The notes under the pieces were generated by a model. That model saw only the letters and a program-made list of their open reading frames with translations. It did not search any database and was not told the origin of the DNA. Both the position numbers and the translations under genes were made by a program. A stretch of DNA of 64,000 nt from the IMG/VR virus record IMGVR_UViG_3300020036_003824; one strand, written 5' to 3'. This document shows positions 8,809 to 63,347 of this stretch, piece after piece. Position 1 is the stretch's first letter; the number at the start of each line of letters is the position of its first letter. This stretch comes from an uncultured virus (IMG/VR IMGVR_UViG_3300020036_003824) (lineage: Duplodnaviria > Heunggongvirae > Uroviricota > Caudoviricetes).

Positions 8809-8845
8809 GCGTTACAAACGCAACGCTTGTCATTCAGACCGCAAA
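8809..8845 (-). promoter_or_regulatory. Bacteroidota-type promoter with overlapping palindromic operator (degenerate)
   Basis: GCGTTACAAACGCAACGC; TTTG -33 box 19 nt upstream of the -7 box. Confidence 0.6.
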
Positions 8846-11622: not shown

Positions 11623-12981
11623 TTAAAATTCAGGTTCACTCCTATTTCCCTGGTTCACAAAATCAGGAAAGTCGTTTGGAAGTTCCGGCACATCGTAAAA
11701 ACCTAAAATGTGGTTAAATCTGCACTCCGAAGCATCCCGGCCCGTTTCCCGGCCTTTGGCAATGAAATTATCCGCATAGCCTTTTTCGTATGGCGTACCG
11801 TCTTCGCGGCTCATTACCTGCACATATTCGGGCCGGTATGGCAGGATGATTGTCGTCGCGTCCTGCGTAAAGTTTTTCGCGTCGGCTATGTCGTACATCC
11901 CGGCGCGTTTATCAGGCCTGTTCATTACTTCCTGCTTTACCTGTGCAAGTACCATGATCGGAATATTCAGTTCCAGTGAAAGCGCCCGAAAACCTGCGGA
12001 TATGCGGGCAAGTATTTCATGTCGAGCACCACGTATAGATGGAATGTCCATCAATTGCGCATAATCCACTACTGCCAGTTGTATGCCCCGTTCATACCTT
12101 TCTTCCCGAATACACCCGGCAACATCCGAAAAAGAGTTTCCGGGGTTTATCGACCTGATTGGCAGTGATTTAATCATCTCCCAATCGGCCCGTATTTTTT
12201 CCAGTTCATCGGGCCTGTAATGCGAAAAGTCGCGTCTGAAAGCCTGCCCCGAATACATTTGCCATAGGCGCTTTTGAACGTTCTTTGGCGAATTTTCAAG
12301 GTTGATGTACGTCGATGGTATTCCACTGAGTGCGCAATAAAGGATCTGGTTCAGCGCGTGGTACGACTTTCCGCCGCCGGAAAGCATCGCAAGTATGATG
12401 TAGTCGGACGGCTCGTAATACGGAATTTTGTTGCGCATCGACTTTAAAAACGGCTTCACCGGATAGTCGAAGGAAAGACCTTCGATAGCCGCAAAAAGTT
12501 CAGATTCAAATTCAGGCTTTCCATCCGACGCTTTTACAAAAGCGCTTATACCCCTTTCACGCCGCATTGATTCTGCCCGGTTCAGCATTTCCATGGCAGA
12601 ATGCCCATCCAAAAGCCAGTTGACCTGGTGCAGCATGATCTGCGTTTCAGAATAGCGACCGTACGCATCGTAAAAGTACGTGTATGCGGTAACTACATCC
12701 ATTTCGGCGTGCTCCATGGCGTAGCCGTGAAAAACACCGATCTCACCGGGGCTTAGACTTGTGGCGATGGTAGCCGCGCTGTATGCCCCGTTCCGTTCAA
12801 ACTGCGATGCGCATTCCAGGATGATGTCATGCCACTGCTTATTTGCCGGGTCGAGCATTTCGGGCCGAATCCTATCCTGAATACGGTGGAAGTTGAACGG
12901 TTCGCCAAGCATTCGTTTGGCAAGTAATTCGACCGCCGTTGTGTACTGCTGAAAAAGCGTTTGCGTTGCGTCTGGATTCAT
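11623..12981 (-). CDS. DnaB-like replicative helicase
   Basis: Walker A SGGGKS, INLEN, VVDYAQL, LAQV, QDAT, IAKGRETG motifs. Confidence 0.9.
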   Translation of the reverse strand: MNPDATQTLFQQYTTAVELLAKRMLGEPFNFHRIQDRIRPEMLDPANKQWHDIILECASQFERNGAYSAATIATSLSPGEIGVFHGYAMEHAEMDVVTAYTYFYDAYGRYSETQIMLHQVNWLLDGHSAMEMLNRAESMRRERGISAFVKASDGKPEFESELFAAIEGLSFDYPVKPFLKSMRNKIPYYEPSDYIILAMLSGGGKSYHALNQILYCALSGIPSTYINLENSPKNVQKRLWQMYSGQAFRRDFSHYRPDELEKIRADWEMIKSLPIRSINPGNSFSDVAGCIREERYERGIQLAVVDYAQLMDIPSIRGARHEILARISAGFRALSLELNIPIMVLAQVKQEVMNRPDKRAGMYDIADAKNFTQDATTIILPYRPEYVQVMSREDGTPYEKGYADNFIAKGRETGRDASECRFNHILGFYDVPELPNDFPDFVNQGNRSEPEF

Positions 12982-13286: not shown

Positions 13287-13660
13287 AAACCTTTATTTTT
13301 TAGATATTTTAAGACTTTGTTTTTTGCTTGGTCAGTCAGGCCGGTGCGGAAGTCGCCAATGATACTGGCGATGTATTCCAGTTCGGCCTGCGATCTTTCC
13401 AGTTCTATTTTCCAGGCTCTTTGCTGCTGATACCTGACTGTTGTCAAATATGCCATTGCCTTTCGGAACTGCGCATGGAATTTCGGGTCGTACATCTGCA
13501 TCATTTTTGGCGAAGCATCCAAAAAGGCTTGCGATACTTCCGGCATCATGGTCAGGCGTTCGATGTCCTGCTTTGAAAGTTCGGAGCCTGACACGTCATA
13601 CTGAAAGTTGTCGGTATGATCTCGCAGGGCTTCGAGTTTGAAAACCCATACGGCGCTCAT
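13283..13660 (-). CDS. Hypothetical protein
   Basis: 125-aa ORF coupled between replication gene and helicase. Confidence 0.7.
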   Translation of the reverse strand: MSAVWVFKLEALRDHTDNFQYDVSGSELSKQDIERLTMMPEVSQAFLDASPKMMQMYDPKFHAQFRKAMAYLTTVRYQQQRAWKIELERSQAELEYIASIIGDFRTGLTDQAKNKVLKYLKNKGL

Positions 13661-14601
13661 TTTCGGATTACAAGCCCGGCCATTTCAGACATAGGTTGCG
13701 CATAGGGTTTTGGGAATGGAGCCGGGGCATTTGGTTTTTCCAGCGGGAAAAATCCCTTCCATCCGTTCGCCCGGCTTTCAGCGGCTATTTCTGCTGCTAT
13801 TTCAGCATTACCGCCCGAAAAGGTGTATAATTTTCGGATGATACGCGCCGCGCTGTCGGCAGCATCGTATTCAAACTTGAATTTCTTCTTTTTGTATTCC
13901 AGCCACTTCGGCCAGGTTTCGTTTTTCAGTATTTCGGCAAAGAACACCTGCTCTTTGCCGGAAAGCAGCCGCGCAACGTCCTTATCATCGAAAGCCTTTT
14001 CTTTTTTAGGGGAGCGGGGGGCGGCGGAACTGGGGGTGAGGGGTGTTTTTTCTTTTTCTTCTACGGTGCTGTTTCCACTTTGGGCGGAAGCGGGCGCAAA
14101 ATCCGAAAACTCGTTTTCGTTTTCTTTTTTTATAGAATTGGTTATATGATTATTGGTATTATAGTGCCTCGGATTTCCATCCGGTCTTTGTTCGGATTTA
14201 AATCCGGTCATATCCGGATGGAAATCCGGTCTTACGTCGGTTTGTTCGGATTGAAATCCGGTCTTGCGCTTGAATTTCAGCAGGTCGTAATTCCTTCCCC
14301 ATGAAAACCACACCTCCCGGATTCTCTTATTTTCCTCATAAAGGTTTATCAATCCTACCTGGTTGAGTTTTTTAAACCGTCTGTAAACCGAATCCTTGTT
14401 CTTAAGGCCGCAAAGCGGCATTTCGTCAATTACTTTTTCGTACGGAACATTGAAGAATATGCTTCCATCCACTACCCTTTTTTTACAGGCCGGTGAATTG
14501 GTGTAATCCGAAAGCATGTCAAAGATGGCGGCATCCACCAAATCCATATCAAGACCGGATTCGATGATGGCGACCTGGTTGATAGTTACAGTAAATTTCA
14601 T
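13657..14601 (-). CDS. Replication initiator (lambda O-like organisation)
   Basis: N-terminal wHTH-like region, central iterons, C-terminal SRANGWKGFF; upstream of DnaB. Confidence 0.8.
   Translation of the reverse strand: MKFTVTINQVAIIESGLDMDLVDAAIFDMLSDYTNSPACKKRVVDGSIFFNVPYEKVIDEMPLCGLKNKDSVYRRFKKLNQVGLINLYEENKRIREVWFSWGRNYDLLKFKRKTGFQSEQTDVRPDFHPDMTGFKSEQRPDGNPRHYNTNNHITNSIKKENENEFSDFAPASAQSGNSTVEEKEKTPLTPSSAAPRSPKKEKAFDDKDVARLLSGKEQVFFAEILKNETWPKWLEYKKKKFKFEYDAADSAARIIRKLYTFSGGNAEIAAEIAAESRANGWKGFFPLEKPNAPAPFPKPYAQPMSEMAGLVIRK
14121..14263. promoter_or_regulatory. Putative replication origin: four CGGAT-N4-ATCCGGTC iterons plus AT-rich tract
   Basis: Iterons at 14170, 14193, 14215 and 14247 inside the initiator gene, next to AT-rich 14121-14165. 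Confidence 0.8.
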
Positions 14602-14619
14602 GTGCTGAACCAAATAAAA

Positions 14620-14755
14620 ATGCCCTAACATTTGGTCGGGCGGCAGAGGGTAGTTTGCCTACAAGCGAGGACAATAAACTCGCTTACCCGCCCAAATGAA
14701 GGGCATCTTCTTAAAAATTTCTTTATTGTCCTTACGTCGGCTACCACCCCGACGG
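14620..14755 (-). ncRNA. c4/CI-like antisense RNA with upstream complementary target sites
   Basis: Multi-stem junction; loop GGACAATAAA (14669-14678) complementary to TTTATTGTCC (14722-14731); second loop GGTAG complementary to CTACC (14741-14745). Confidence 0.65.
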
Positions 14756-14821: not shown

Positions 14822-15586
14822 TTACTCTCCTTCATTTTGATCCGGAGCCGGAACAATTTCATCGTCAATCAAACGGTATTTTACGCCGGGCATGTAGTTC
14901 ACCCCGTCTACGAGCGCCATTTTTCGCTTCCACTCATACCCTTTTTCGCTGGACCATTCTTGCCAGCGGAACATGAGCAGCGCGCCGTAGCCGCCCGTGA
15001 CGGTCGCGCGGTAGCCGCCCGTGACGGTCGCGCGGTCGCCGCCCGTGACGGTCGCGCCGTCGCCGCCCGTGACGGTCGCGCGGTCGCCGCCCGTGACGGT
15101 CGCGCCGTCGCCGCCCGTGACGGTCGCGCGGTCGCCGCCCGTGACGGTCGCGCCGTCGCCGCCCGTGACGGTCGCGCGGTTGCCGCCGCTAACAGTTGAG
15201 AACATGATAGGAGTTCCACCCGGCGCAAAATTTTGCAAAATTTTAACGGAAGTTTCGCGGTCGCCCAGATACAGAATTTCACAGGTCGGGAATTTTACCT
15301 TGTCTTCCAGGTCGATGATTGTTGACTCTTCAACCGAAAGAATAAGCCATTTTGCATCATCGTCTTTTACGCGAAGATTGCTGTCGCCCACACCCCATTT
15401 CCAGCCGTGCAGACCATTTCCGCATTCGCGGACCGCTCTCCAGTCTGGAGCCGACACGGTGCCGGATTCAGGCCACTTAAATCCGCCGCTTACATGATTC
15501 CTCGCAGCAACCATGTCGGCTGGAAGAGATTTGAGTACAAGTACGTGACCGTCTTCCGGTTTGTAGAGATCGAAATTGATGTCCAT
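14822..15586 (-). CDS. Phage protein with CGNGLH N-terminal domain and GGDRATVT/GGDGATVT octapeptide repeats
   Basis: RECGNGLHGW motif; about eight 8-aa repeats. Confidence 0.8.
   Translation of the reverse strand: MDINFDLYKPEDGHVLVLKSLPADMVAARNHVSGGFKWPESGTVSAPDWRAVRECGNGLHGWKWGVGDSNLRVKDDDAKWLILSVEESTIIDLEDKVKFPTCEILYLGDRETSVKILQNFAPGGTPIMFSTVSGGNRATVTGGDGATVTGGDRATVTGGDGATVTGGDRATVTGGDGATVTGGDRATVTGGYRATVTGGYGALLMFRWQEWSSEKGYEWKRKMALVDGVNYMPGVKYRLIDDEIVPAPDQNEGE
14990..15181. repeat. 24-bp tandem repeat, about 8 copies, in-frame coding
   Basis: gccgcccgtgacggtcgcgc(g/c)gt(c/a) units. Confidence 0.95.
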
Positions 15587-15633: not shown

Positions 15634-16431
15634 TCAGTGCATGTTTGCGTTAATCCACTTTTTTACGTCTGGTAGTACGCGCATAAAATTGGCGCGCCAA
15701 AAAATGTTCTTTTCAAATTGAGCATCAGCGCTAACTTCCGCCCATTTAATGCGCTGTTCATCGCTGAAAATAGCCGCTTGCAAGCGTTGGTCGATCAGCG
15801 CAACGGTGTTTTCCCAGCGCTCTTTTGTGGGTGTTTCCTGCGCCAAGTCCCATGCTTCTTTCCAGCCTGTTTCCATTTGCCGGGTCGTTACTATTTCGCG
15901 GATGAAGGTCAGGAAGTCGCTTTTATATTTCAGCAGTTGACCGACAAATTCCCGGCGTACTTTGGTCTGATACGCTTCCGTATTTCCGGTGTACTGCGAT
16001 TTTCCGAAGTCTTCAAAGTCGCTTATAAGATCAGGCAGGCCGATGTGTTTATCGAAAGTTTTTACGGCAACCTGTATTTCGTCAAGCGGCCAATTCTGAT
16101 CCTCGTTCATTTGTTCGAGTGACTTGAAAATCTTGTTGAATAGTGCCAGTTCATTGCCGGGCGTGTCCTGCTGAATTATGAAGTTCATGTAGACATAATT
16201 CACATTGTTCACCACAACTACCGGCAACTTTCCGGCAATTTCGAGTGCGGCGTAGTTGATCTGCGCCTGTATACGAATCCATTCGCGATTCTCGATAAGC
16301 CCCATGTTGTACTGCTTTCTTCCCTGGTTCCATCGGGCTTGAAGCAGGATCGTATCCGGGTAAAACTTTGCGAGATGGGATAAAGCCTCTTCCGTTTGGC
16401 CGGTCGCAATTAGATGCTTAATGTTAGTCAT
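15634..16431 (-). CDS. Protein with N-terminal effector-associated domain (EAD11-like) and helical C-terminus
   Basis: IKHLIATGQTEEAL...ILLQARWNQGRKQYNMGLI...WIRIQAQINYAALEI pattern. Confidence 0.7.
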   Translation of the reverse strand: MTNIKHLIATGQTEEALSHLAKFYPDTILLQARWNQGRKQYNMGLIENREWIRIQAQINYAALEIAGKLPVVVVNNVNYVYMNFIIQQDTPGNELALFNKIFKSLEQMNEDQNWPLDEIQVAVKTFDKHIGLPDLISDFEDFGKSQYTGNTEAYQTKVRREFVGQLLKYKSDFLTFIREIVTTRQMETGWKEAWDLAQETPTKERWENTVALIDQRLQAAIFSDEQRIKWAEVSADAQFEKNIFWRANFMRVLPDVKKWINANMH

Positions 16432-16476
16432 AATGATAAGGAGATGTTGGTGATAAGTTGTTGTTTGCTCTGTTTG

Positions 16477-16513
16477 GCGTTACAAAATTAACGCTTGTTT
16501 TTGATACCGCAAC
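16477..16513 (-). promoter_or_regulatory. Promoter with overlapping palindromic operator
   Basis: GCGTTACAAAATTAACGC containing the TAATTTTG -7 box. Confidence 0.8.
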
Positions 16514-16594: not shown

Positions 16595-16819
16595 TCACTC
16601 ATTCAGGTGGTAAAACACCTCCCGTCGATAGCGGCCAGGCGCAAACTTTTCAAACATCCTGTCAAGCCTCAGCGCCCCGGCCTTCCCGTTTTTTGCAGCA
16701 TTGCGCGCCTTATATATACACTGCTTTTCGTATCGGCTTACCGACTTCCATTCCGGCTGTGTTTTCATCCAAGATAAGAAGTCTTCGAGTGCTTCCGCCT
16801 GTGTTAGTTTTTTATTCAT
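16595..16819 (-). CDS. Small basic protein, divergently transcribed from the + strand island
   Basis: MNKKLTQAEALEDF start; TACATTTG -7 box just upstream. Confidence 0.6.
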   Translation of the reverse strand: MNKKLTQAEALEDFLSWMKTQPEWKSVSRYEKQCIYKARNAAKNGKAGALRLDRMFEKFAPGRYRREVFYHLNE

Positions 16820-16823
16820 GCGG

Positions 16824-16892
16824 CAAATGTATATTGTATGAAAAATATTTGCAAACTTTTTTTGTATGTCAAATTTTTGTATCATACATTTG
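16824..16892. promoter_or_regulatory. Back-to-back divergent promoters
   Basis: CAAATGTA (- strand TACATTTG) at 16824-16831 and TACATTTG on + at 16885-16892. Confidence 0.65.
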
Positions 16893-16914
16893 CCGGACAA
16901 AAGGACAAAGGACA

Positions 16915-17930: not shown

Positions 17931-17995
17931 AGTGAAAAGCGGTGCAATTTTTCTTTTGCACCGATAAACGATTAAAAATCAATAATCTATACAAT

Positions 17996-19702
17996 ATGAA
18001 GCAAGGTAAAAAAGTGCAGTTTTTTTATGAGTTGCACCGCAACCCGCCCGGTTTGGTAGGTCGGTTCCCCGATGGAACTACCTACCGCAGTCTTTTGGAT
18101 GGACGTACATATTGGCTGCTCAATGGCCAGTATGAAGTGCCGGTTCCGGGCTGCCCGTTTCCGGGGCAACTCTTCGCGGCGAACGTTTTCGCATTTCTTT
18201 TCAAAAACAGGCGTATGGTAATCAACTCCATGTTTTTTATCGCCGCCCTGGTCGTTATGCAGTTCTTTATCTGGCAGTTGCCGGGCGATGCGCTAGATGA
18301 AGCGAAGTTGAGTTTCATTTCGCTGATCTCGTTCGCCCTCAACGGCGTACTGCTGCTTGCGGGGTGCATACTGACGTTAACGCTGCTAATCTGGAATTTC
18401 GGCAAGGGCGTTACTTTTCCTTCGAAAGAGGATGAAGCGGTTTTGTCTCTCACAGACGGACAAATAAGCATATCGCCTGACGTGCTTGTAATGTCCGGTT
18501 CTGAAAATGAAAATCCGTCTGACATGGCGGACAGGATCGAACTTGCGCGGGCTGTGCAGAAAAACGGACAGTGGATCGTTATCCTTACTTTTCGCCACAA
18601 AGACGGACTGATTATTTTTACGTCGGACAATTCGGATGACGTGGAATTTGACGGCTACCGCTTCCAGCGCACCGACTGGGGCGAAGCACACCAAGCCGCA
18701 AACTGCAAGCATTACCCCTCTGAAACGTGGGCGCAATACACGGCTTATTGCCGGAAGTTTGCAGCCGATTTTTCGGAGTGGAGCGCGGAGGAAAAGCCGC
18801 GCCATATCGACCCGGTAACAGCGCTCACTCAGCGCCTCCGGGCTGCTGCTGTAAAGATGATCGTTCTACTGCTGATCTGCGTTTCGGGTGCGCTGTCTGC
18901 CCAAAAAAGCGCACAGGTATCGAACTACTTGGGGCAGTACAGGTACGACAACGTAAAGCCCGCCGGTGAAGTGAAATTCATCTTCGAAAAGGTGATTTTG
19001 AAACGCGGCGGCAAGGGAGATAAGACCTACAAGCAACTCCTGCGTGATGGCATTTCCTATACCGACGCGGATAATGCTGGCAGGCTTGTCGGCATTACCG
19101 TATCCGGTCAGGTGATCGAAGCGGAATCTGCCGGCGCGGTGGTTATGCCCAAAAAGCAAGGCCGCATGGTTTCCAGTATTGCAACCAGTGAAACACGGCC
19201 TATACCGGATGCGCTTTCAATTCCTGACAGCGTGGCCATGGAGCAAAAGTTAGAAGGCGTGAAAACGCAGGTGGATAAATGGAGGTCGGAAGTATGGAAA
19301 TCTATCCGTCCGGTGTGGGCCTTTGTGATGTGGTTTTTTACATCGATACTTGCACCAGTGCTCGTTTTGCTGGGCGGTTGGATGCGCTACATCGCAAAGA
19401 GCGCTGCGGGCGAGGGCGCCGTCAATTCATGGGGCGGTTCCATCTTCGGGCCTTTCATGGTATGGGTACATCAAAATTTCAGCGCGTCCCTTATGGTCAT
19501 CGTGTGGACGGCTGCGACAATCCTGCTTTTCGATTCATTCCTTTGGCTTGTATGGTGGGGTTTCAGTCTATGGTCTATAATCCCGGTTTGGCTTTTGGAA
19601 CTGTGGATTGCACAGGCGCTTACCAACTGGATTGTGCCGAATGTACGCGTTATCTCAAATGGGAATCAGGCGGCAAACCGATTTCCCCAAATTGGCGGGT
19701 AA
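17996..19702 (+). CDS. Large multi-pass membrane protein
   Basis: Several TM clusters plus an internal signal-peptide-like segment MIVLLLICVSGALSA|Q at 18857. Confidence 0.75.
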   Translation: MKQGKKVQFFYELHRNPPGLVGRFPDGTTYRSLLDGRTYWLLNGQYEVPVPGCPFPGQLFAANVFAFLFKNRRMVINSMFFIAALVVMQFFIWQLPGDALDEAKLSFISLISFALNGVLLLAGCILTLTLLIWNFGKGVTFPSKEDEAVLSLTDGQISISPDVLVMSGSENENPSDMADRIELARAVQKNGQWIVILTFRHKDGLIIFTSDNSDDVEFDGYRFQRTDWGEAHQAANCKHYPSETWAQYTAYCRKFAADFSEWSAEEKPRHIDPVTALTQRLRAAAVKMIVLLLICVSGALSAQKSAQVSNYLGQYRYDNVKPAGEVKFIFEKVILKRGGKGDKTYKQLLRDGISYTDADNAGRLVGITVSGQVIEAESAGAVVMPKKQGRMVSSIATSETRPIPDALSIPDSVAMEQKLEGVKTQVDKWRSEVWKSIRPVWAFVMWFFTSILAPVLVLLGGWMRYIAKSAAGEGAVNSWGGSIFGPFMVWVHQNFSASLMVIVWTAATILLFDSFLWLVWWGFSLWSIIPVWLLELWIAQALTNWIVPNVRVISNGNQAANRFPQIGG

Positions 19703-26396: not shown

Positions 26397-26433
26397 ACGT
26401 TACAAAATTAACGCTTACCAATGAAATAACAAA
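26397..26433 (-). promoter_or_regulatory. Promoter with overlapping palindromic operator
   Basis: ACGTTACAAAATTAACGC; TTTG -33 box at 19-nt spacing. Confidence 0.8.
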
Positions 26434-29425: not shown

Positions 29426-29463
29426 AGCGTTACAAAATTAACGCTCGTTTATGACACTGCAAA
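29426..29463 (-). promoter_or_regulatory. Promoter with perfect palindromic operator
   Basis: AGCGTTA-CAAAAT-TAACGCT; TTTG -33 box at 19-nt spacing. Confidence 0.8.
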
Positions 29464-30423: not shown

Positions 30424-30596
30424 TGCATTATGTTTTTTCGTTCGGCTCCGCAATATTGCTGCGCCGTTTGTATGGACAAATGTACATACCTTTTTGATTT
30501 ATGCAACTATAAAAGCAAAATTATTTTTTGCATAAAAAAACCCGACGCTCATTTGCGCCGGGTCGGTTTCCCGTATATAATCTCATGAAAAGTTTG

Positions 30597-30668
30597 TGGC
30601 GAGAGCCGGAATCGAACCGGCGGCTCTGGGTTATGAGCCCAGCGAATTAGCCCCTTTTCCATCTCGCG
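30597..30668 (-). tRNA. tRNA-Met(CAT), initiator (fMet)-type
   Basis: CTGGG-CTCATAA-CCCAG anticodon arm with three G:C pairs; GCCGG-TTCGATT-CCGGC T arm; C1 mismatch; A11:U24; no encoded CCA. Confidence 0.85.
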
Positions 30669-30676
30669 CCACAAAT

Positions 30677-31171
30677 TTACAAAAGCGGTTTGACAATTAA
30701 AAATCCTTTTTCGGGGTAAATTGCTTCGATTATCCTGCGACAGTCTCCATGTACCCATCCGGGCGTCGAATTGAGGTCTTCGATGGTAGTCAGGCCGATA
30801 GCCCGGAACCTCGCTTCGTTTTCCAGAATAGCCGCTAAAATCTGCTCAGTTGTGTATGCGGGCGAAGAAACGTCCAAAGCGCTGGCAAAGTAGTGCATCG
30901 ACAGTTCACCGCCTCCTGCGGGCTTGTAGGAGCGCGGACGGGTACCTCTGCCGACGTAGTAACCCTTGCCCGGCTTTTTGTAGTGCCAGGTATTGATAAT
31001 TACCGGCGCTTGCAGGACTTCACGCAGCAGCATGGCGTAGTTGACCTGAAAATCGGAAATGTAATAAAGGCAGCGCTCCATGCCGACCGATGTAATGATC
31101 GACGGATGCACGAACTCTTCCCGCTTGAATTTAAAAGCGGGGTCTTTGAATAATTTGCCGATGTCCAGCAT
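30677..31171 (-). CDS. Endolysin, peptidase M15-like
   Basis: RGTR, SMHYFASALD, WVHGD zinc-peptidase motifs. Confidence 0.8.
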   Translation of the reverse strand: MLDIGKLFKDPAFKFKREEFVHPSIITSVGMERCLYYISDFQVNYAMLLREVLQAPVIINTWHYKKPGKGYYVGRGTRPRSYKPAGGGELSMHYFASALDVSSPAYTTEQILAAILENEARFRAIGLTTIEDLNSTPGWVHGDCRRIIEAIYPEKGFLIVKPLL

Positions 31172-41871: not shown

Positions 41872-43518
41872 TTAGTATTTCGCTGTGATTTCAAGTTCCG
41901 ACGTTTCCAAATTCAGGTCTGCGTTGTCAATTTCGCCGTTGCCCAGTGAGGTAATGATGTAATCATCGGGCCGGAAGGTGTCGGTGCAGCATTTTTTGAC
42001 TTTGAAAGCCGGCTGCTTGCGCGTTTTTCGGATAGAATCAGGTTCTACCTCTTCTCCATTGATTTTTCCGATACCTGCCATGTCGAAAGTGTGGTAGTTG
42101 GCATGTAGTTCGGTGAATGAAAGCGGGCGGTTATCCTGAATGACGCGGTAAACCCCTTCTACCTGCTCTGTTGCCATCATAAACCAGCCTGCATCGCCTA
42201 CCGATTCGGCATTGTCCGCATCGGTGGCAAAAACCAGGTCTGTGTAAAACACCGTGCAGCGCGCATCCACTTCACCCTCTCCGCAGTAGATTTCAATCGG
42301 AAGCCCTTTGAAATAGTCGCTGCACTGTTCATCCCGAAAGTAAAAGCGCGTCAGGCGCGGGCTGTTTGAATTGTCGCGTTGCAACTCCCGCGTGTAGTAT
42401 TCGTTCGTGTAGTCGTTGCCTTCCTGCGCTTCGTAAAAAGATATGTGTTCCAGCCTCAAATTAACGTCGTCCGAAATGCTGGGCCGCACTTTGAACATGA
42501 CCCATAGATCATCCAATACCTCTTTGATTTTGATAACCCAAACCGGCTTTGTGCTTTTGTTGGTAGCGTCAAAGCGTTTGATGTCGGACTTTTGAAAGAG
42601 CACAAGGTTTTGCAGGTACAAAAGCGCCGCCTGGTATGCGCGGTTGTCGGGCGCATCGCCTTGCGGGTTGATGTTGAAAAAGTCTGACTGCACCTGAAGG
42701 CCGCATCCGGATTGATCTAAAAGGTACTGCATTACGTCGCTGAACATGCGCCCGTATTGGTACGTTGCTGCCAGGTGCGAATCAGTCGGGCATTTCCAGT
42801 ACAGCGGTGTTCCGGGGCATGATCCATCGAACAAATACCAATCGGAAACAAGATCGGGCGGAACGGGGGTGCCGCCTTCGCAGGTGCCTTCCTTTACGAG
42901 CCGGTGATAGAAAAATGTGCAGGTGTGTATGATCGGCTGCGGCGTGTCTACCACCTCATCAAAGCAGTAATCAGGTACGGTCGGCGGGATTGCCTGCTCA
43001 CACGGTATGTTGTAGTCTGCTTGAAATTCAAATGTGCTGTACTGATCTGTGTACGGCTTTACCTCGATCTGTTCAGGTATATCGTAGATGTTGATGACTT
43101 CCGTCCATTTCTTTTTTATGCACTCGATACCCCAATCGGCGAATGAAAATTCGGAGACTTTTGGCTTTACGATGACGTACTTTTCGTCTCTGTTGATGCG
43201 CCATTCAGTCGTCGTAAATTCGCCCACCCAAAACTCCGACCATGCGCCATTGCAATACAGATCGACACTGATCTGGAAGCGGTAACAGCCGTTGTCCATG
43301 ATGAGAAAAGATGCCCACGGGTTTTCTGGTTCATCTACATCCCATTCATTTTTCGGTAGCGCATTGCAACTGATCTGGACTTCATTCTTTATCGAAAACC
43401 GATAGTTTTTGAAGTCCGGATCCGGCTTGTAATTCATAAGCGCATCCCAACCCACTTTGATTACAGCGTCAGGCAGCCCGTAATCATCGCACTGCATTCT
43501 AACCCTTATTTCCGCCAT
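41872..43518 (-). CDS. Cys-rich tail tip / hub protein
   Basis: Immediately follows tape measure; 548 aa. Confidence 0.6.
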   Translation of the reverse strand: MAEIRVRMQCDDYGLPDAVIKVGWDALMNYKPDPDFKNYRFSIKNEVQISCNALPKNEWDVDEPENPWASFLIMDNGCYRFQISVDLYCNGAWSEFWVGEFTTTEWRINRDEKYVIVKPKVSEFSFADWGIECIKKKWTEVINIYDIPEQIEVKPYTDQYSTFEFQADYNIPCEQAIPPTVPDYCFDEVVDTPQPIIHTCTFFYHRLVKEGTCEGGTPVPPDLVSDWYLFDGSCPGTPLYWKCPTDSHLAATYQYGRMFSDVMQYLLDQSGCGLQVQSDFFNINPQGDAPDNRAYQAALLYLQNLVLFQKSDIKRFDATNKSTKPVWVIKIKEVLDDLWVMFKVRPSISDDVNLRLEHISFYEAQEGNDYTNEYYTRELQRDNSNSPRLTRFYFRDEQCSDYFKGLPIEIYCGEGEVDARCTVFYTDLVFATDADNAESVGDAGWFMMATEQVEGVYRVIQDNRPLSFTELHANYHTFDMAGIGKINGEEVEPDSIRKTRKQPAFKVKKCCTDTFRPDDYIITSLGNGEIDNADLNLETSELEITAKY

Positions 43519-46369
43519 AATTTGGATAGTGAGTAGTTACGTTTCCTTTTCGTTTGATCTTTCCATCCGGTGACCAATCCTCTTTTCTTGCCTGCTCAAT
43601 CATAATTTCGAGCATTCGCTCCATCAAAAAGATTGAACGGGAGTTATCGCGGCTTTCCCCGCTTGCGCCGGCCATATCGCTACTCGCGCTCAGGCGCTTG
43701 GTAATGGCCGAATGATCCATGTCGGGCGTTTCCATGCCGGATAGTTGGAAGGCGTGTCGTGCAAGCGCCCGGCGGTCGCCACGGTTCGCAGCGTCCAACA
43801 GATCGAAGTATTCCGCTACGCGCTCTTTACGCACAACCGAAAAGCGCTTTTTACTGCCGTCCTGTCCGACTTGCATAAGTTCGCCCTTTTCAATCTCGAT
43901 CAGGTTGCCCCCGTCGCTGTGTGATCTGCCATTGACAAATCCGTTATCTTCGATAAAGCCGCTACCGCCTTCGCGGAACTTTGTCGCCGCTGCGAAGGAT
44001 GCGCGTACGCGGCTTATGGTGGACAGCATGGTTGCGATAGCGGCAATGGCCAGCGCTACGCCCACAAACGGAACGGGTGCGCTGGAGGCGAAGAACTCTG
44101 CCGCCGCCGTGGCGATGGAACTGGCCTGCGTAGCCGCGTCAATCAGCGCCCGCTGCCGGGCTGCCTTCCGCTGCTGCTCAATCGCATCCGCCTGCGCTTT
44201 TTTAGAATCTTCCAGATCTGCCCGGCGGGCTGCTACGTTATTCGCAAACCCCTGCTTTTGCAGTTCCAGTTCCGCATTGAGCGCATCCTCCGCTTTTGCT
44301 ACGTTTTCATCCGCTACGCGCCGCGCCTCCGCAGCCGCTTCGATACGCGCCTGTGTAATTTGGTCGATTGCTTCCTTTACTGCCGATACGGCCTGTTTTA
44401 GCGCCTCATCTTCCTGCCCGCCGGATTTGAACCCAAGCAGTTCGATCAGCGATTTTGGCCCGGCATCTTTGCCGCCCTTCTCACCAAGGCCCGCTTGAAT
44501 CTGCCCGATTTCCGTCTGGATATTTTCAATCCGCTTTCTAAGTGTGGCTTTTTCGGTTTCGGAAAGGTTTGTTCCAAATTCGAGCGTGCGCTTCAACTCT
44601 TCCGACTGCATCTTCAGTTGGAATATTTCCCGCTCTTTTGCAATACGGGCCTCGAAAACCTTAATTTCTTCCTGTGTGCGTTTTTTTGAGAAAAAGGCGC
44701 GTCGTTGTTGCAGTTCGCTTTCTTTGAAAAGCGCCTGGTTTAGGGCTATTTCATCGGCGCGGGCCTCCGAATCTTCCTTTCGTTGATCGGCAGCGAATTT
44801 TTTAAGTTCTTCAGTCGCCTTTAAGCCCTGTTTCCTGATCTTTTCGCCCTGCAAAAGTTGCTCTCTGAAAGCGTCAGCATCCGCCTTTACTCTTTCAAGG
44901 GCATATTTGACCTTTATTCCGATGACGTTATCCTGAAACTGCCTTTCAGCGTCAATGCTGGATATGTGGTACTTGCGCAGTTCTTTAGCCAGCGCCGAAA
45001 ACCTTGCCGTTTCCTGCGCTATCTCCTTCGCCTCTCCATCCTTCATCGCTTCGATGCGGAGTTGCTGAATCTTCTTTTGTTCCGCTTCCAGTTCCTTCGC
45101 ACTTTTCACGTTCAATTCCTTCCGCTTGTCGGCTGCCTCTTTTTCAAGCCGCAGTTCTTCATCCGTTTTTTTCTTTATGAATAGGATGTTCTTCTCAAAT
45201 GTCCCGGCATTGAAAGTTACCTCCGCAGCCTTGTCTGCCAGTTTCTGCGTAAGCCGGTCGTTGGCCGTTCCTGTTATGTTGTCGATGAAAAAGCCGATCT
45301 GAAGAGCGGCGCCCTTCAAAAAGTTGGTGATAAAGTCACCGACGCTTTTCAGGATGGGCGAAAGTTTGTTTACAAGCCCGTTGTAAAGATTCGGCAGCGT
45401 CGTTGCTTGCTCTGCTGCGAGTTTGGAAAACTGTGAACCCTCTTTGGACAGGTTGAAAAAAGCAAGTTGCAGTTCCTCGAAACTGATCTTGCCCTCGCTT
45501 GCCAGTTTCTTTATCGCTCCCTCGCTCACGCCCAACTGTTTTGCAAACTGTCCGATAATCGGAATGCCCGCTTCTACAAGTTGGTTAATGTCTTCCGCGT
45601 AGAGCGTTCCGGCGGTGCGCGCCTTGCCGTAAATCGTTGCCAGTTCGTTGAAATCCTTACCCGTCGCTCTGGAGATCAGCGCAATGCGATTGAGCACATC
45701 GGGTAGTTTATCGGCATTTTCGCCGAAAGCAAGCAGGCTTTGCCCGGCCTGAAATACTGCTTCCGGGTCGAGGATGTTTTTGTTTGCAACCGTGGTCAGC
45801 GAGTTTACAAGTTTTGCCGCCTTGTCCGCATCTCCGGTGAAAGCGTTGAACGACTTTTGCGCTTTGTCGAACTGATTGGACAGGTCGACGGCTGATTTGG
45901 TCAATTCAACGACCTGATCGACAATTGCAAGTATCAGCGTAGCCTTTGTAATGGCGCCGAACGCCTCGCCCACCACCTGCGCCGCCAGGCTGCCTTCCTT
46001 GCCGATCTTTTTTAGATTCACTCCGACAGCATCGCCGGTCTGTTCCAGTTTTTTAAGACCTACCTCCGCGTTTTTCAGTTCTTTTGTATAAACCGTGATT
46101 GCGCGCGGGTCGTATGCCGTTTTCAGCGCCGTTCGAAGCGTATCGGCTGCACCTTTAAGTTTGGTGTATTCGGTTTTTAGTTTGTTGATGTCGTCCAACT
46201 GCTTGACCGCGCCGTCGCCTTCGGGGACAAAGGATTTTGAAGCCTTACTGGCAGCCTTGTTGATATCGACATACCCCTGCTCTATCTGTTGCAGACGCTT
46301 GTCCATCACATCCAGTTTGGACGTAACGTCGCTAATGTCAAGGGTAAGTTTCGATGATTCGTCTGCCAT
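43499..46369 (-). CDS. Tape measure protein
   Basis: 956-aa Ala/Lys/Glu-rich helical protein with GTLYAEDINQLVEAGIPI core. Confidence 0.92.
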   Translation of the reverse strand: MADESSKLTLDISDVTSKLDVMDKRLQQIEQGYVDINKAASKASKSFVPEGDGAVKQLDDINKLKTEYTKLKGAADTLRTALKTAYDPRAITVYTKELKNAEVGLKKLEQTGDAVGVNLKKIGKEGSLAAQVVGEAFGAITKATLILAIVDQVVELTKSAVDLSNQFDKAQKSFNAFTGDADKAAKLVNSLTTVANKNILDPEAVFQAGQSLLAFGENADKLPDVLNRIALISRATGKDFNELATIYGKARTAGTLYAEDINQLVEAGIPIIGQFAKQLGVSEGAIKKLASEGKISFEELQLAFFNLSKEGSQFSKLAAEQATTLPNLYNGLVNKLSPILKSVGDFITNFLKGAALQIGFFIDNITGTANDRLTQKLADKAAEVTFNAGTFEKNILFIKKKTDEELRLEKEAADKRKELNVKSAKELEAEQKKIQQLRIEAMKDGEAKEIAQETARFSALAKELRKYHISSIDAERQFQDNVIGIKVKYALERVKADADAFREQLLQGEKIRKQGLKATEELKKFAADQRKEDSEARADEIALNQALFKESELQQRRAFFSKKRTQEEIKVFEARIAKEREIFQLKMQSEELKRTLEFGTNLSETEKATLRKRIENIQTEIGQIQAGLGEKGGKDAGPKSLIELLGFKSGGQEDEALKQAVSAVKEAIDQITQARIEAAAEARRVADENVAKAEDALNAELELQKQGFANNVAARRADLEDSKKAQADAIEQQRKAARQRALIDAATQASSIATAAAEFFASSAPVPFVGVALAIAAIATMLSTISRVRASFAAATKFREGGSGFIEDNGFVNGRSHSDGGNLIEIEKGELMQVGQDGSKKRFSVVRKERVAEYFDLLDAANRGDRRALARHAFQLSGMETPDMDHSAITKRLSASSDMAGASGESRDNSRSIFLMERMLEIMIEQARKEDWSPDGKIKRKGNVTTHYPNYGGNKG

Positions 46370-55656: not shown

Positions 55657-57492
55657 TTATTGTTGCTGATTCTGGTTGAGCGCGGGTGCATTTCCTGCGA
55701 GTTGCTGTTTTATCAGCAGTACCTGCGCGTCGATCAGTTTCTTTTGGTCTATACGCGGCATGTCGTAGAAGTTGGGGTTCTCCGAAAGTATCACCTCCAT
55801 GATGTCGGACTTATTCAGGAAAAACAACTTCTTATCTTCCGGCACAAGCGCATTGTTCAGGGCGACAATGATCTGCGCTTCCGTCATGCCCCGGAACGGA
55901 TTGTGCTGATCGTCGATTTGCGCGCGTCTGAGCGCTTCGGGATCATCTTGCAGCATGACTTCCATGATTCGCAGTTGCAGGATCGCACAGGCGTCCGTGC
56001 TTGCCCCTGCCGTTCGTGCGGCGGTCAGTTCGTCGAACAGGTCGTATACCGTCTCAAAACGCAGATTGGATGGAATGATCGGCTTTGCCATGCCGCCGGC
56101 TACTTTGACAGCGGAAGCGATTGCGCGTGACAGTTCAGAGCATACGGAAGAAATGTGATTGGAATAGGGCCAAAGCGCATCATTCACGCCCTGTTCCGCC
56201 CGGCTGTGAAAACGCGCCGTCTGCGCCACTTCGCTTTTCGTGGTCAGTTCCGAATTGTAAACTGCCAGGTTGGCTTTTTCTATCCACTTATCCCAAAGAG
56301 TGATGAGCAGCGCGGCGGCTTCCGGCGGGAAGTGTATGTATGCCAGCATTCCCGACAGTTCAACTATCAGTTCTTCCTTCGAATCCGGCATATCCACCGT
56401 AATTTCTTCCTGCACCGACGTAGGCCGGTTTTTCCTGCCCGTACCGCCGCATACCTTGCAGGCTGTGCCGTCGGATCGTTCCCCTCCGATACAGTCTTTT
56501 GCCCCGCATTTATCCGCAAACCGGATCGGGATAGGACTTGCAACGAGCGCAGCCGTCAGATCGACCTCACTGTTTGTTTTCAGCAGTTTCTTTGCGAAGG
56601 GAAGGGCAGCATGAAAGATGGAAAGTTTTGTCGCCCCGTCGTCGATCGGATTGTCGATGTACCCCGTACGCACGGCAGGTGTTTTGGCGTACCCGTGCGG
56701 GATTGGGATGACAGCCTCGTAAATCCGGTTGTCGATCTGTACCAGGTACCCGTTTTGGATAGTAACATTCAGCGGGAACATCTCGTTTTTGCCGGGCGCG
56801 TTCCGCATGGAGATGTACGTCTGTGCCAGCCGTGGCGGCAACTCTTGCAGCACAACCGTTTGCAGCGGGCGGTACATGGTCAGGCGCTCCAGTTTGTAGC
56901 GTGTCCCGTCTTCATCCTGCTCAACGATTTGACGGCAACACAGGTACAGCAGTTCGGATTGTTTGTACTGGAAATCGACTGCCATTTCTGCCGTCACCTC
57001 GAAAGGGTAAGGCTTCGCGTTGTTTTTATTGTTGTCGAAGTCTTTCCACTCCACGACTGAAAAGCAGTTCGGGTCGTAGATATTCCAGTAGCGCACCCGC
57101 TCAAAGCAGTACGGGAAAAGCCCCTTCGTGCCGAATGCGGAAAGAACGTTGCGGTTAAATTCGTTTGCCCGCTTTCCATCTTCGTCACCATCGACGACGA
57201 CATACTGCTTCCAGTTGGAGCGCTCGATCTTTGCGACCGGCTTTTCCAGCATCATGCCAAGCGCACTTTGCACTTCCGCCGTTATTTCTTTGCGCTGTAA
57301 AAAGAGTTCGTCGGATTCGCGGCGGGTAAATATGCGCATGTACTTGTCCAGGTTCACCCCGCCAAAGTATGCTTTCAGTTCGGCCCCGTACTCAACCGTC
57401 CATGCGTATCCGGGATGGTAGGACGTGGCGCCGTACCTGGCGATGTTGAAAAGGTGGTTGAGCGCTTCGTTATTCGTCATTATGGCTGCCAT
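55657..57492 (-). CDS. Portal protein with zinc-finger-like insertion
   Basis: 611 aa directly after TerL; internal CGAKDC...CKVCGGTG. Confidence 0.8.
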
Positions 57493-58888
57493 TGCTGCTT
57501 AATAGTTTCTCAAACCGTTTGTATTGCGATTTGAGTATGTAGGTTACCAAATACCGCAGAGCGTCCGACGTATGGCCGTAACGCTCGAATGATACCCCGC
57601 CTTCCGTTACCCTTTGTTTCAGCACCCCGCCATTTGCGTCCTGTTTGATGTAAAGCAAATCCTGTATGAGATGATAGCAGTCCCGGTCGATAATCAGTTC
57701 AACGCCCGGCACACGCCCTTCGAAGATTGCGCACAAAAATAACACACTTTTACGGACTTCCGGGTTTTGCGCCTGAATCCGTAAAGAATTGCTATCCGCT
57801 TTTGTCCATAATGCCGCTTTTGCGATCTGGTAATCCGATCTTGCCGCCCTCGTATCGCGTTTATTGCCCGAAGCATCGCCGTAAATGTACACTTTGTCGA
57901 TCTTATCTGCCCAATCGATCAGGAAGTCTTCACAAAGCGCCTGTGTTGTAGAGCGCGGGTTTTTCAGGCAGTATTCCTTCAGTATGCGTATTTGCAGCGT
58001 TCCGTCTTCCTTATACCTGCACTGGCAAACAAGCAGTGTGATGTATGGAACTACGTTTTGGTCAAAAGACAGGTGCAGCACAGGTACCGATGGATCGAAG
58101 AGCAGTGAGGCCGTATGTTTACCCTGGTCGAACGAATAGAACGCTTCGTTACCCGTACGCGCTACCGCATCATAATCGCCGTCAAGCAGGCGCTGACGTT
58201 CAAGCAGTGGCAACTTTTCCAGTTGCTTGCGGTATGCCTTTCTAAATTCAGGATCCGGATTGTCTGAAAGCAGCGATCGGATAACCATTTGGTAATCCTT
58301 CAGAGAAACGATGTTGCCTTTTTCGTCTTTGATGTATCGCTTTCGTGTCCATCCGGGGTCAGGGTTTCCGGTAAGCAGCAGTTTTGGCGCATTGAAAGGT
58401 ACCTGCCCCAGTTTGTAGCGGATACGGCTTGAAATGATGTCAATGATATGCTCTTCCACTTCCGGCGATTCATCCACCGCCGCGTCGGTCAATTCCAGCG
58501 AGCCGAAGTTATGCGAATTGGGATTCGATGGTTGATAGGAAAGGGCTTTTAGCAGCGTCTCGCTGCCGTTGCTCCAAAATATCTCATTCTCACCTCCCTT
58601 CCTCCATGTAACGCCCATTTGGTTGTATTTCCATACCGCTTCCCATCTTTCCTGAAAGGTCTTCCACGTGGTCGTCATCAGGTCGGTGAACTGCTTACGC
58701 CCGATCAGGCCGCGTGTGCCGGGATACATCAAACGTCGGTAGATATGCCAGTCGCAGAGAAGGCGGGATTTGCCACCTCCAGCCGCACCGCCGTAGAACA
58801 ACTCTTCTATCGACGGGTCGTTTTCCAGATATTCCCATGCCAGACTTTGCTTATAGGAAAGGTCTACGTTCAGTATGTTAGCGCCCAT
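57470..58888 (-). CDS. terL: Terminase large subunit
   Basis: YGGAAGGGKS, AAVDE, LTGNP, LSFD, YGDASG, HTSDALRY. Confidence 0.95.
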   Translation of the reverse strand: MGANILNVDLSYKQSLAWEYLENDPSIEELFYGGAAGGGKSRLLCDWHIYRRLMYPGTRGLIGRKQFTDLMTTTWKTFQERWEAVWKYNQMGVTWRKGGENEIFWSNGSETLLKALSYQPSNPNSHNFGSLELTDAAVDESPEVEEHIIDIISSRIRYKLGQVPFNAPKLLLTGNPDPGWTRKRYIKDEKGNIVSLKDYQMVIRSLLSDNPDPEFRKAYRKQLEKLPLLERQRLLDGDYDAVARTGNEAFYSFDQGKHTASLLFDPSVPVLHLSFDQNVVPYITLLVCQCRYKEDGTLQIRILKEYCLKNPRSTTQALCEDFLIDWADKIDKVYIYGDASGNKRDTRAARSDYQIAKAALWTKADSNSLRIQAQNPEVRKSVLFLCAIFEGRVPGVELIIDRDCYHLIQDLLYIKQDANGGVLKQRVTEGGVSFERYGHTSDALRYLVTYILKSQYKRFEKLLSSNGSHNDE

Positions 58889-62054: not shown

Positions 62055-62315
62055 TTAGGCCGTTTCGTTGGTCTTATGATGGGAAATGATATTTTCACTG
62101 TCGTTCCTTTCTTCGATGGTGCCATAGTATCTTATGTTTGTTTCGGCCTCTATGCTGGCAAGTGATGAGGCGTGTAATTCATCCGCAACTATCAGGCCGT
62201 TTTGATAATTATGCTCACAAATAGAACACGGTTTACCCTTATTGCCTTTGCAGCCGTTTCGCTGCCTGAATACCGGCTTTCCGATATGGTCGATGAAAAA
62301 TTGTAGGCGGGTCAT
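62055..62315 (-). CDS. Hypothetical Cys-containing protein (its 5' part is also at 1-119)
   Basis: 86-aa ORF. Confidence 0.65.
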   Translation of the reverse strand: MTRLQFFIDHIGKPVFRQRNGCKGNKGKPCSICEHNYQNGLIVADELHASSLASIEAETNIRYYGTIEERNDSENIISHHKTNETA

Positions 62316-62392
62316 TTGCGGTGTGAAATTATTGCGCCGACCAATCCAAATGTATACACAAAGACAAGTATCACAATTAGTATTTTTATCAT
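62312..62392 (-). CDS. 26-aa transmembrane peptide (allele-specific)
   Basis: MIKILIVILVFVYTFGLVGAIISHRK with ATGA overlaps at both ends. Confidence 0.6.
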   Translation of the reverse strand: MIKILIVILVFVYTFGLVGAIISHRK

Positions 62393-62637
62393 CCTGCTTT
62401 TATTTTATCCCTCAATACCGCCGCCCGTTCGTAATCTTCCGATTCGATTGCCCGGCGTAGTTGAGACTGTAAAGAATTGTCAGGCTTTTCAAAAGCGCAG
62501 CCGATGGTGAATGATATTGCGCCCATTATTTGCAGCCACATTGCCAGGCGTTCCATTTCCTCCCTTTCTTTTTGTAGCCGCTTTCTTTTGTGGCGAAGGA
62601 AAAAGAGTTTGATTTTTCGGTATAGGTTCATTCCCAA
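62389..62637 (-). CDS. UVR-motif protein, second allele
   Basis: Homolog of 424-672. Confidence 0.75.
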   Translation of the reverse strand: MGMNLYRKIKLFFLRHKRKRLQKEREEMERLAMWLQIMGAISFTIGCAFEKPDNSLQSQLRRAIESEDYERAAVLRDKIKAG

Positions 62638-62855
62638 AATCCTTGTTTAATAAATTTTCCGTTTGCATCAAAAATCACGTCCGAACGAAAAGGCGTGTAG
62701 CCATCAAAGTCGCTATTTTCTTCGTCCGGTTCGGCCCACATGGTAATAACTATTTTTGCATTTGGATAGCGGCGAATATCATCCTGGATTTCTTTTGGCT
62801 TCAATTCTATGCCAAAGGACTTATAAAGATCAATAAATTTTTGTAGGTCTGTCAT
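62628..62855 (-). CDS. Hypothetical protein, second allele
   Basis: Homolog of 663-890. Confidence 0.75.
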   Translation of the reverse strand: MTDLQKFIDLYKSFGIELKPKEIQDDIRRYPNAKIVITMWAEPDEENSDFDGYTPFRSDVIFDANGKFIKQGFWE

Positions 62856-63337
62856 TCTCCTGGAAAGTTAAGGTTTGCAAATTCGCCAAATAACTCTTTG
62901 GCCTTTTGATCGTAAGCGCGGGCGGCCTGTTCGGGGGTGTTGTATGTGCCTATGTAAAGCCTTATCCCGTTAGCCATTAATTTTGACTGCCATCTTCCAG
63001 CAGGCGTTCTGTATGCGCCTTTAAGGCCATGTACATTTTCTTTACGGGGCTTTCTATTCATAAGGTTTTGAGCCTGGCTACAAAGCCTTAAATTTTCGCG
63101 TCTGTTATCGAGTTGATTTCCGTTAATGTGGTCAACTTTTATATTTATATCCGTAACCCCCATTATTTGCCTGTGCAAATATATATTGCCGTTCTTTCCG
63201 AATTCAGTGGGCTTGTACCTCTTTATGTATATTCCATGTCTCCGAACGTCTACAAACCACCTGTACTTCATCAACTCTTCAAAATCGCAGTCATCAACTA
63301 AAGCGAAATAACCCTTTGTAAGTGGTACCTGTTTCAT
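62852..63337 (-). CDS. HNH-AP2 endonuclease, second allele
   Basis: Homolog of 887-1372, same length. Confidence 0.9.
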   Translation of the reverse strand: MKQVPLTKGYFALVDDCDFEELMKYRWFVDVRRHGIYIKRYKPTEFGKNGNIYLHRQIMGVTDINIKVDHINGNQLDNRRENLRLCSQAQNLMNRKPRKENVHGLKGAYRTPAGRWQSKLMANGIRLYIGTYNTPEQAARAYDQKAKELFGEFANLNFPGE

Positions 63338-63347
63338 AAAAAAGAAA

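Follow-up and report, generated by a model that had tools for sequence, protein, structure and literature searches.

A phage gene joining an EAD11 adaptor domain to a helical domain: a candidate mimic of host EAD11-TIR effectors

Effector-associated domains (EADs) are adaptors that, according to computational predictions, link sensors with suicide enzymes in bacteria of filamentous or multicellular growth. In the EAD-coupled conflict systems described by Kaur, Burroughs, Iyer and Aravind (PMC7159879, PMC8195603), EAD11-TIR proteins carry a small all-helical EAD11 at the N-terminus, and STAND-FGE-sulfatase (FGS) sensors bear exchangeable N-terminal EADs or effectors, with FGS sensor domains that are predicted to bind invader proteins (Kaur et al., PMC8195603). 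Here we analyse a phage gene for a protein of this kind, located in a 64,000-nt stretch of an uncultured virus of the Caudoviricetes (IMG/VR record IMGVR_UViG_3300020036_003824); this whole stretch is called the window below. The gene codes for a protein of 265 aa composed of an N-terminal EAD11, a linker and a C-terminal domain (CTD), and is designated the EAD11-CTD gene (coordinates of all features in Table 1). Its product resembles host EAD11-TIR proteins in the position and nature of the adaptor; unlike them, it is encoded by a phage, holds the only EAD11 of its genome and has, in the place of the enzyme, a helical CTD found in phage contexts. A phage copy of one adaptor subtype is a natural probe of EAD wiring.

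There is a precedent for phage copies of host adaptors. Acinetobacter phage 133 codes for a CARD-only protein that acts as an inhibitor of a bacterial gasdermin system dependent on CARD, lowering both gasdermin cleavage and defence, and the authors of that study draw a parallel to the pyrin-only proteins of poxviruses (bioRxiv 10.1101/2023.05.28.542683). Both phage proteins are copies of a homotypic immune adaptor of the host without the host effector domain, and interference with assembly is proposed for both. However, the phage 133 protein is an adaptor only (141 aa), was recognised by its predicted structure and was assayed for inhibition, whereas the EAD11-CTD protein belongs to another adaptor family, has high identity to the adaptor of one host effector, has a function predicted by sequence comparison and always carries a conserved CTD of 170 residues plus the linker. 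Animal viruses and animal cells likewise have pyrin-only and CARD-only decoys that correspond to our proposal, being dominant-negative homotypic adaptors that stop effector oligomerisation; vFLIP and ICEBERG/COP are reportedly adaptor-only decoys of this animal type. These are, nevertheless, eukaryotic death-fold domains, and we found no sequence relation or demonstrated fold relation between them and EAD11.

The sponges Tad1/Tad2 and Acb2, the protein DSAD1 and the NAD-rebuilding pathways would share with the EAD11-CTD protein a likely target, abortive infection directed at NAD (nicotinamide adenine dinucleotide), but they work by binding signals, by direct binding of the effector or by restoring NAD, and none of them is known to copy a host adaptor domain. 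Listings and abstracts on phage decoys, adaptors and TIR counter-defence contained sponges, direct binders and NAD rebuilding, and no EAD mimic. Among the matches listed in the full-text literature on effector-associated domains and EAD11 there was no phage-encoded EAD, and the term 'phage-encoded' does not occur in PMC8195603. What is new here is an adaptor specific to the subtype of one host effector, its host operon context, the phage-only contexts of the CTD and the hints of module exchange.

The EAD11 domain and its host counterparts

The N-terminus of the protein matched the Pfam family EAD11 (PF19964) over residues 3-69 (E 4.3e-12, 46.3 bits; positions 5-79 of the 80 in the profile), above the curated cut-off of 26 bits. 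A preliminary description of this DNA had assigned the first ~65 aa to EAD11 from the sequence letters and proposed a profile search as a check; the Pfam match bears it out. Besides EAD11, the protein did not match any Pfam family, showed a single, non-significant match in PHROGs (E 0.19) and none in a PADLOC scan. An AlphaFold2 model, built on an alignment of 20 sequences (mean pLDDT, a per-residue model confidence score, 79.6), consists of the four helices of EAD11 (residues 4-65) at the N-terminus, a linker whose residues 69-85 have a pLDDT below 50, and a CTD that is all-helical over residues 94-263. The view that EAD11 is joined here to a helical domain without an enzyme motif is thus in agreement with both the model and the lack of family matches. 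The arrangement fits the layout of the EAD11 family, in which a small, non-catalytic helical domain at the end of a protein is joined to another domain.

A search of 5.8 billion protein clusters returned 26 matches, comprising six relatives of full or nearly full length (P0001-P0006, identity 58-100%), one gene call that is a chimera (P0007) and 19 EAD11-TIR proteins. The latter have only the first ~65 residues in common with the query, at 64-78% identity (50 of 68 residues, or 74%, for P0018), and all those that are named belong to Saprospiraceae or Lewinellaceae. A pattern-seeded scan, taking one genome per species, produced 18 loci, all of them from Saprospiraceae, Lewinellaceae, Chitinophagales or otherwise unassigned Bacteroidota metagenome-assembled genomes (MAGs), and none matched the query beyond EAD11 and a weak extension. 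Of the 18 loci, 16 contained both EAD11 and TIR_2 according to Pfam; L019, cut at the contig start, contained TIR only, and L018, an open reading frame (ORF) of 74 residues, was outside the Pfam scan. The host TIR domain has an invariant SGWV..E motif, and EAD11-TIR proteins occur on contigs of up to 1.9 Mb.

The phage EAD11 was 74.6% identical to the best TIR-linked host EAD11 and 33.8% identical to the best of the other paralogs sampled in five candidate host genomes (linked to SIR2, caspase, trypsin, etc.). All 18 members of the CTD family (see below) similarly showed 31-39% identity to their own best other paralog, the median identity between TIR-type and other EAD11 paralogs being 30.9%. 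In a maximum-likelihood tree of 68 EAD11 domains, which relied on as few as 78 columns and whose bootstrap was not fully settled, the query and five relatives nested in a clade (support 98/97) made up of 16 rows of TIR type and 6 of phage type. A weak (55/61) root split separated this clade from most other paralogs; L042 and the second L007 copy, both with very long branches, fell on the near side of this split and outside the TIR-linked clade. These identities and the placement in the tree indicate that the phage EAD11 is not a generic member of the family, but of the type that in the hosts is attached to a single effector. At the nucleotide level, comparison of the phage EAD11 with those of five host genes gave identities of 63-69%, the closest three reaching 68-69%; in the comparison with L005, one of the closest, third positions agreed in only 22 of the 47 codons for the same residue. 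The likeness is old and held by selection, and not left from a recent transfer. In a weak search, the only proteins found with this EAD11 subtype were EAD11-TIR effectors and phage proteins, together with one 74-aa protein from a 1.7-kb contig that is probably a cut-off copy.

Two Saprospiraceae MAGs (loci L007 and L009) contain an operon coding for a SIR2_2-EAD11 protein, an nSTAND1 NTPase-FGS protein and, in last place, EAD11-TIR; the operon of L007 also includes an AbiGi protein and a second EAD11-TIR. A gene for an FGS protein precedes that of EAD11-TIR in L005 and L008, and in other loci the EAD11-TIR gene is alone, beside a LytTR response regulator. EAD11 matches numbered 29, 24, 16, 24 and 23 in the five candidate host genomes (G002-G006) and were absent from all 14 control genomes, which indicates that the candidate hosts probably rely heavily on this adaptor. 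In 16 of the host paralogs that were fetched, EAD11 was joined to TIR, SIR2, caspase (twice), trypsin, HATPase_c_4, a winged helix, DUF4384 or unassigned regions. The expansion of EAD11 paralogs, 16-29 per genome in these Saprospiraceae, Lewinellaceae and Bacteroidota MAGs, is large in its own right. The Saprospiraceae of activated sludge matter for wastewater treatment, and the interplay of phages and hosts there is poorly known.

The C-terminal domain and its distribution

An exhaustive phmmer search with residues 70-265 against 1.84 billion cluster representatives identified 18 proteins, none longer than 298 residues. EAD11 was N-terminal and above the Pfam cut-off in 12 of them and just under it in another (25.5 bits), the other five being fragments of 75-194 residues; in this set, and at this search depth, the CTD is always behind EAD11 and in no other fusion. 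Residues W190, R216, F222 and W245 are invariant in the family alignment, and P91, N93, F102, M108, D255 and others are nearly so, but we did not find in it any motif that could be tied to catalysis. The linker, to which P91 and N93 belong, is also kept across the family. Comparison with the homolog from L057, a 3-kb piece syntenic with the window (83% nucleotide identity), gave a ratio of nonsynonymous to synonymous substitution rates (dN/dS) of 0.12 for the whole gene, and of 0.08, 0.10 and 0.13 for EAD11, linker and CTD, respectively. Because these values are low in each of them, the three parts are probably all functional, including the 'disordered' hydrophobic linker.

Structural comparisons did not assign the CTD to any described fold. 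Foldseek searches of the PDB and BFVD gave no match to the CTD protein at E <= 0.001, and a protein atlas search gave no usable one. The best hit of VIA-align among 48,161 chains (Z 8.0) was below the noise level stated by the tool for helical bundles; this search, which barely covered the EAD11 part, placed residues 188-265 and residues 90-187 each on generic up-down four-helix bundles (talin R7R8, FAT, alpha-catenin, hemerythrin). As judged from sequence and model, the CTD lacks enzyme-like features. Long BLASTP extensions into the TIR region, gapped and weak, and the invariance of W190 and F222 in a mixed alignment (A3) had raised the idea that the CTD is a degenerate TIR, which was discarded: hhalign against EAD11-TIR gave a probability of 1.4%, there was no Pfam TIR match, and the domain is all-helical, not alpha/beta.

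The CTD was found only in phage or phage-like contexts. Full-length relatives are located on three IMG/VR contigs (L020, L021 and L022), of which L022 belongs to a phage of 103 kb that has direct terminal repeats and a completeness rating of 100%, and L021 carries genes for a methyltransferase, a helicase and a replication initiator (Rep). Three further contexts came from a metagenome scan: L057, described above; L058 (12.7 kb), which contains small ORFs of the same strand plus RecT and an exonuclease; and L059, in which an endolysin gene adjoins the EAD11-CTD gene. No neighbour gene is conserved across the contexts of the family. Ten family representatives that were looked up came only from Logan or ENA assemblies, in contigs of 1.2-72 kb. 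A CTD-only profile hidden Markov model (HMM) recognised the three virus records used as positive control (3/3) and none in a sample of 401 genomes of the family to which host genome G002 belongs; among all the loci that were fetched it matched only viral ones. The full-length profile matched 36 out of 401 genomes from the order, in every case inside EAD11; two longer matches (G128 and G150, up to profile positions 156 and 168) were dismissed as CTDs, since the CTD-only HMM did not match them. A tblastn search of 50,697 GenBank phage records gave no match, nor did a search for related loci with alignment A1 among viral contigs. All these searches cover samples, and their negatives mean 'not found in those searched', not absence.

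Possible roles of the EAD11-CTD protein

We propose, with what we consider an even chance of being right, that the protein is a phage anti-defence factor, a dominant-negative adaptor mimic that would block the assembly or recruitment of EAD11-TIR. TIR NADase effectors must be brought together to act. EAD11 would mediate the self-assembly of EAD11-TIR, or its pairing with SIR2-EAD11, and the phage protein, made from its own promoter at the head of a replication operon, would join these assemblies, or take the docking site, through look-alike EAD11-EAD11 contacts. The CTD and linker would then sit in the place of the TIR domain, capping or diluting the assembly; with a helical CTD standing where TIR should be, TIR domains could not come together in the assemblies, so that both the loss of NAD and abortive infection would be blunted. 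Additionally, the CTD may bind TIR or SIR2, or block them, or it may bind what they produce. A single EAD11 was detected in a 59,091-bp virus with the same gene (G001, see below), the other copies being confined to candidate host genomes, suggesting that the gene is not part of a self-contained EAD-coupled system and would act only in trans. An anti-defence EAD11 mimic that sequesters host partners had already been put forward in the preliminary description; the mimicry has gained support from the phage location of the gene, the TIR-linked subfamily of its EAD11, the replacement of the effector by the CTD, the presence of its own predicted promoter and the CARD-only precedent, whereas the sequestration is still a proposal. 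If the protein does block an EAD11-TIR/SIR2/STAND-FGS system, this would mean that the system cannot fire unless EAD11 domains make contact, and would reveal which partners meet; it would also extend the adaptor-only decoy strategy (CARD-only, pyrin-only) to a second class of bacterial adaptors, and the always-attached CTD may be a new inhibitory module.

Several observations weigh against this proposal. The conservation of 170 residues of CTD and of the linker suggests that the protein does more than occupy a site; a pure decoy needs EAD11 alone, and the conserved CTD was left unexplained in the preliminary description. Likewise, effectors too are normally built of an EAD joined to a further domain. 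The docking hub for which a decoy would compete did not turn up, because the STAND-FGS proteins of L007 and L009 have no EAD11 detectable with Pfam and a weak search, in which 19 candidates were scored, found no protein of at least 465 aa with the EAD11 subtype of the phage protein. The EAD11 of five of the 18 family members is only 32-51% identical to the sampled TIR-linked type. Binding, inhibition, timing of expression and host are what we infer: only the position of the gene points to early expression, and only the EAD11 likeness and the promoter type point to a Saprospiraceae-type host, the decoy itself being deduced from sequence and comparative evidence. To our knowledge, homotypic EAD-EAD binding is a computational prediction even for host proteins, and we know of no test of it. 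When residues 1-75 of a host TIR-type EAD11 (alignment A7) and residues 1-72 of the phage EAD11 (alignment A4) were co-folded without controls, ipSAE was 0.00 in two runs, a result that counts neither for nor against such binding.

Comparison of the EAD11 domains within the CTD family hints at repeated exchange, or tracking, of host EAD11 alleles by phages. In 12 of the 18 members, EAD11 is 59-79% identical to some host TIR-linked EAD11, whereas the CTDs have a median identity of 34%, and in 11 of those 12 it is closer to a host TIR-linked EAD11 than to that of the window phage. The EAD11 domains of P0034 and P0037, for example, are both 76.5% identical to the L010 host protein, as against 63% and 52%, respectively, to P0001. 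The phage label requires 11 changes on the EAD11 tree, the branches starred on it forcing at least two, and is present in several TIR-type subclades. Holding 13 phage EAD11s monophyletic cost 32.7 log-likelihood units (approximately unbiased, or AU, test, p 0.043), a borderline result for a group that was named after inspecting the first tree. In the comparison with L057, nucleotide identity was 72-73% in EAD11 and 83-93% in the rest of the gene, and conserved residues had identical codons in 25 of 50 cases for EAD11 and in 103 of 138 for the CTD (Fisher p 0.002); nevertheless, the alignment of these two phages contains other dips, which suggests that mosaicism is general in the vicinity. The occurrence in several subclades, the AU test, the P0034 and P0037 identities and the divergence from the L057 EAD11 hint at an address-tagged inhibitor, in which EAD11 would be a swappable 'postcode' that brings a phage-invented inhibitory CTD, perhaps with the linker, to host TIR/SIR2 NADase assemblies, with phage lineages swapping EAD11 to follow the adaptor allele of the host. 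We consider this version tentative and rather doubtful; if true, phages and hosts would be engaged in a modular arms race over adaptor codes, a phenomenon as yet undescribed in prokaryotic immunity.

The same data bear on other explanations. The CTD could be a toxic or regulatory domain that docks by EAD11 on the immune hub of the host for the benefit of the phage, be it the exclusion of competing phages or host takeover. In the effectors described for EAD systems, an EAD at the N-terminus indeed precedes a C-terminal domain that varies (PMC7159879, PMC8195603), and purifying selection on the CTD and linker, as well as the invariant W190, R216, F222 and W245 and the nearly invariant D255, would be expected of such a plug-in effector. 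We regard it, nevertheless, as unlikely, because the CTD has no family, fold or motif pointing to an enzyme or a pore and was in none of the 401 host-family genomes, although the hosts keep dozens of EAD11 effectors; moreover, its gene sits among replication genes, and the lack of recognised lysogeny genes in the window leaves no obvious lysogen to protect. The place of the gene at the head of an operon with DUF7666 protein, replication initiator and DnaB genes, and a promoter motif common to other DNA-metabolism operons, are what a non-immune role would predict, with EAD11 as the module by which a phage protein of replication or regulation oligomerises or interacts, and the likeness of this EAD11 to host domains reflecting common descent only; the five family members whose EAD11 is unlike the sampled TIR-linked type agree with this. 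But the family contexts lack a conserved neighbour, as expected of an accessory gene, EAD11 has stayed close to the host TIR-linked type in 12 of 18 members while the CTDs drifted, and monophyly of the phage EAD11s was rejected, if borderline, all of which makes this role quite improbable.

It is also conceivable that the host senses the phage EAD11 protein, which would make the gene a liability, or that the gene is a counter-counter-defence element. Phage anti-defence proteins are known to trigger other systems, and proteins of invaders are the predicted ligands of the FGS sensor domains of hosts (PMC8195603). However, purifying selection on the gene and its spread over different phage backbones (59 kb, 103 kb and others) argue for a benefit to the phage, and we consider a trigger or bait very improbable.

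Promoter, neighbouring genes and genome setting

As predicted from sequence, the EAD11-CTD gene has its own promoter, of a class that recurs in the phage. The preliminary description had placed an operator-bearing promoter directly upstream of the gene, and a promoter-like element with a palindrome does lie within 16432-16513 (Table 1). It fits TTTG / TAnnTTTG, which we take to be the Bacteroidota promoter consensus, and its second box, TAATTTTG, lies within the 18-bp palindrome GCGTTACAAAATTAACGC. With one mismatch at most, this 18-mer occurs four times in the window, against 0.20 expected, and none of 100 shuffled sequences reached four copies. The flanks of the four copies also align, with a TTTG box upstream (19-nt spacer) and AAGCA downstream. 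Every copy precedes a leftward DNA-metabolism gene or operon, and three of the four come after a T-rich, terminator-like run. The four copies likely represent one temporal class of phage promoters, and the palindrome is possibly a shared site for a putative regulator. The runs labelled RNA-Seq that match the stretch are probably DNA and consist of contig scraps only, so that they carry no information on transcription or on where it starts.

Table 1. Location of the features of the window, and of the host operons, mentioned in the text.
Feature	Position	Strand	Remarks
EAD11-CTD gene	15634..16431	minus	ATG start; 265 aa/codons; stop included
EAD11 adaptor domain, residues 3-69	16225..16425	minus	Pfam PF19964 and four modelled helices
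Linker, residues 70-93 (VVVVNNVNYVYMNF...PGNE)	16153..16224	minus	hydrophobic and beta-prone; low pLDDT yet conserved
CTD, residues 94-265	15637..16152	minus	all-helical; two four-helix-bundle-like halves (model)
Bacteroidota-type promoter-like element	16477..16513	minus	GTTG at 16513-16510, 19-nt spacer, TAATTTTG at 16490-16483
Palindrome-promoter motif copies	8809-8826, 16477-16494, 26397-26414, 29427-29444		GCGTTACAAAATTAACGC with <=1 mismatch
Terminator-like hairpin between 74-codon ORF and promoter	16565-16542	minus	10 pairs, 7 of them G-C, then a T run
Upstream 74-codon ORF	16595-16819	minus	ORF call
DUF7666 / phrog_18079 protein, next gene downstream	14822..15586	minus	same direction as EAD11-CTD gene
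Replication initiator	13657-14631		PHROGs
DnaB-like helicase	11623-12981		PHROGs
Endolysin	30677-31171		PHROGs
Tape measure protein	43499-46369		PHROGs
Large terminase	57470-58888		PHROGs
Host operons (Saprospiraceae MAGs)	L007 6210-12611; L009 4551-9189		SIR2-EAD11 / nSTAND1-FGS / EAD11-TIR

Ahead of the 74-codon ORF, and at the point where leftward and rightward genes diverge, there is a region (16821-16902) rich in inverted and direct repeats. It contains the 12-nt sequences CGGCAAATGTAT and ATACATTTGCCG, fully complementary and 51 nt apart, and a sigma-70-like TTGACA-17-AATATT, and could be a candidate regulatory switch. This region belongs to the 74-codon ORF and not to the EAD11-CTD gene, and the motif GCAAATGTAT taken from it was not enriched in the window (10 matches, 5.7 expected).

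As far as can be judged from its genes, the window is phage DNA throughout. Matches to PHROGs at E <= 1e-5 were obtained for 23 of its 73 ORFs and, besides the genes of Table 1, include other helicases, HNH endonucleases and methyltransferases; the same scan did not recognise an integrase, a repressor or any other lysogeny gene among the 73 ORFs. The nearest record is G001, mentioned above, which CheckV rates 100% complete; it contains the same gene with 0 nt differences, and hence an identical protein, as well as one EAD11 match in all, the same as in the window. The stretch occurs in wastewater and activated-sludge metagenomes of several studies, nine runs having at least half of the sampled words.

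The EAD11-CTD gene is the first of a leftward block, followed by the genes for the DUF7666 repeat protein, the replication initiator and DnaB, and is probably co-transcribed with the DUF7666 gene, since no terminator was called between them. The DUF7666 protein contains about nine tandem GGD(R/G)ATVTGG repeats (GGDxATVTGG), and the repeat region of its gene, at ~15110-15190, is where short contigs of several metagenome runs accumulate. A rightward block at 16.9-22.3 kb codes for proteins without family matches, among them one of 586 aa (17942-19702, +) with hydrophobic, membrane-like stretches. The two ends of the window are partly repeated: bases 1-121 are identical to 62197-62317, and 424-1388 matches 62389-63352 at 90.7%, the repeated stretch (1-1388 versus 62197-63352) corresponding to an HNH endonuclease gene and its flanks. 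The window, at 64 kb, exceeds the 59 kb of the closest virus record that is complete, so that its two ends may overlap around the genome or may hold HNH paralogs that have diverged. Finally, a tRNA-Met (CAT) gene (30596-30668, -) adjoins the endolysin gene.

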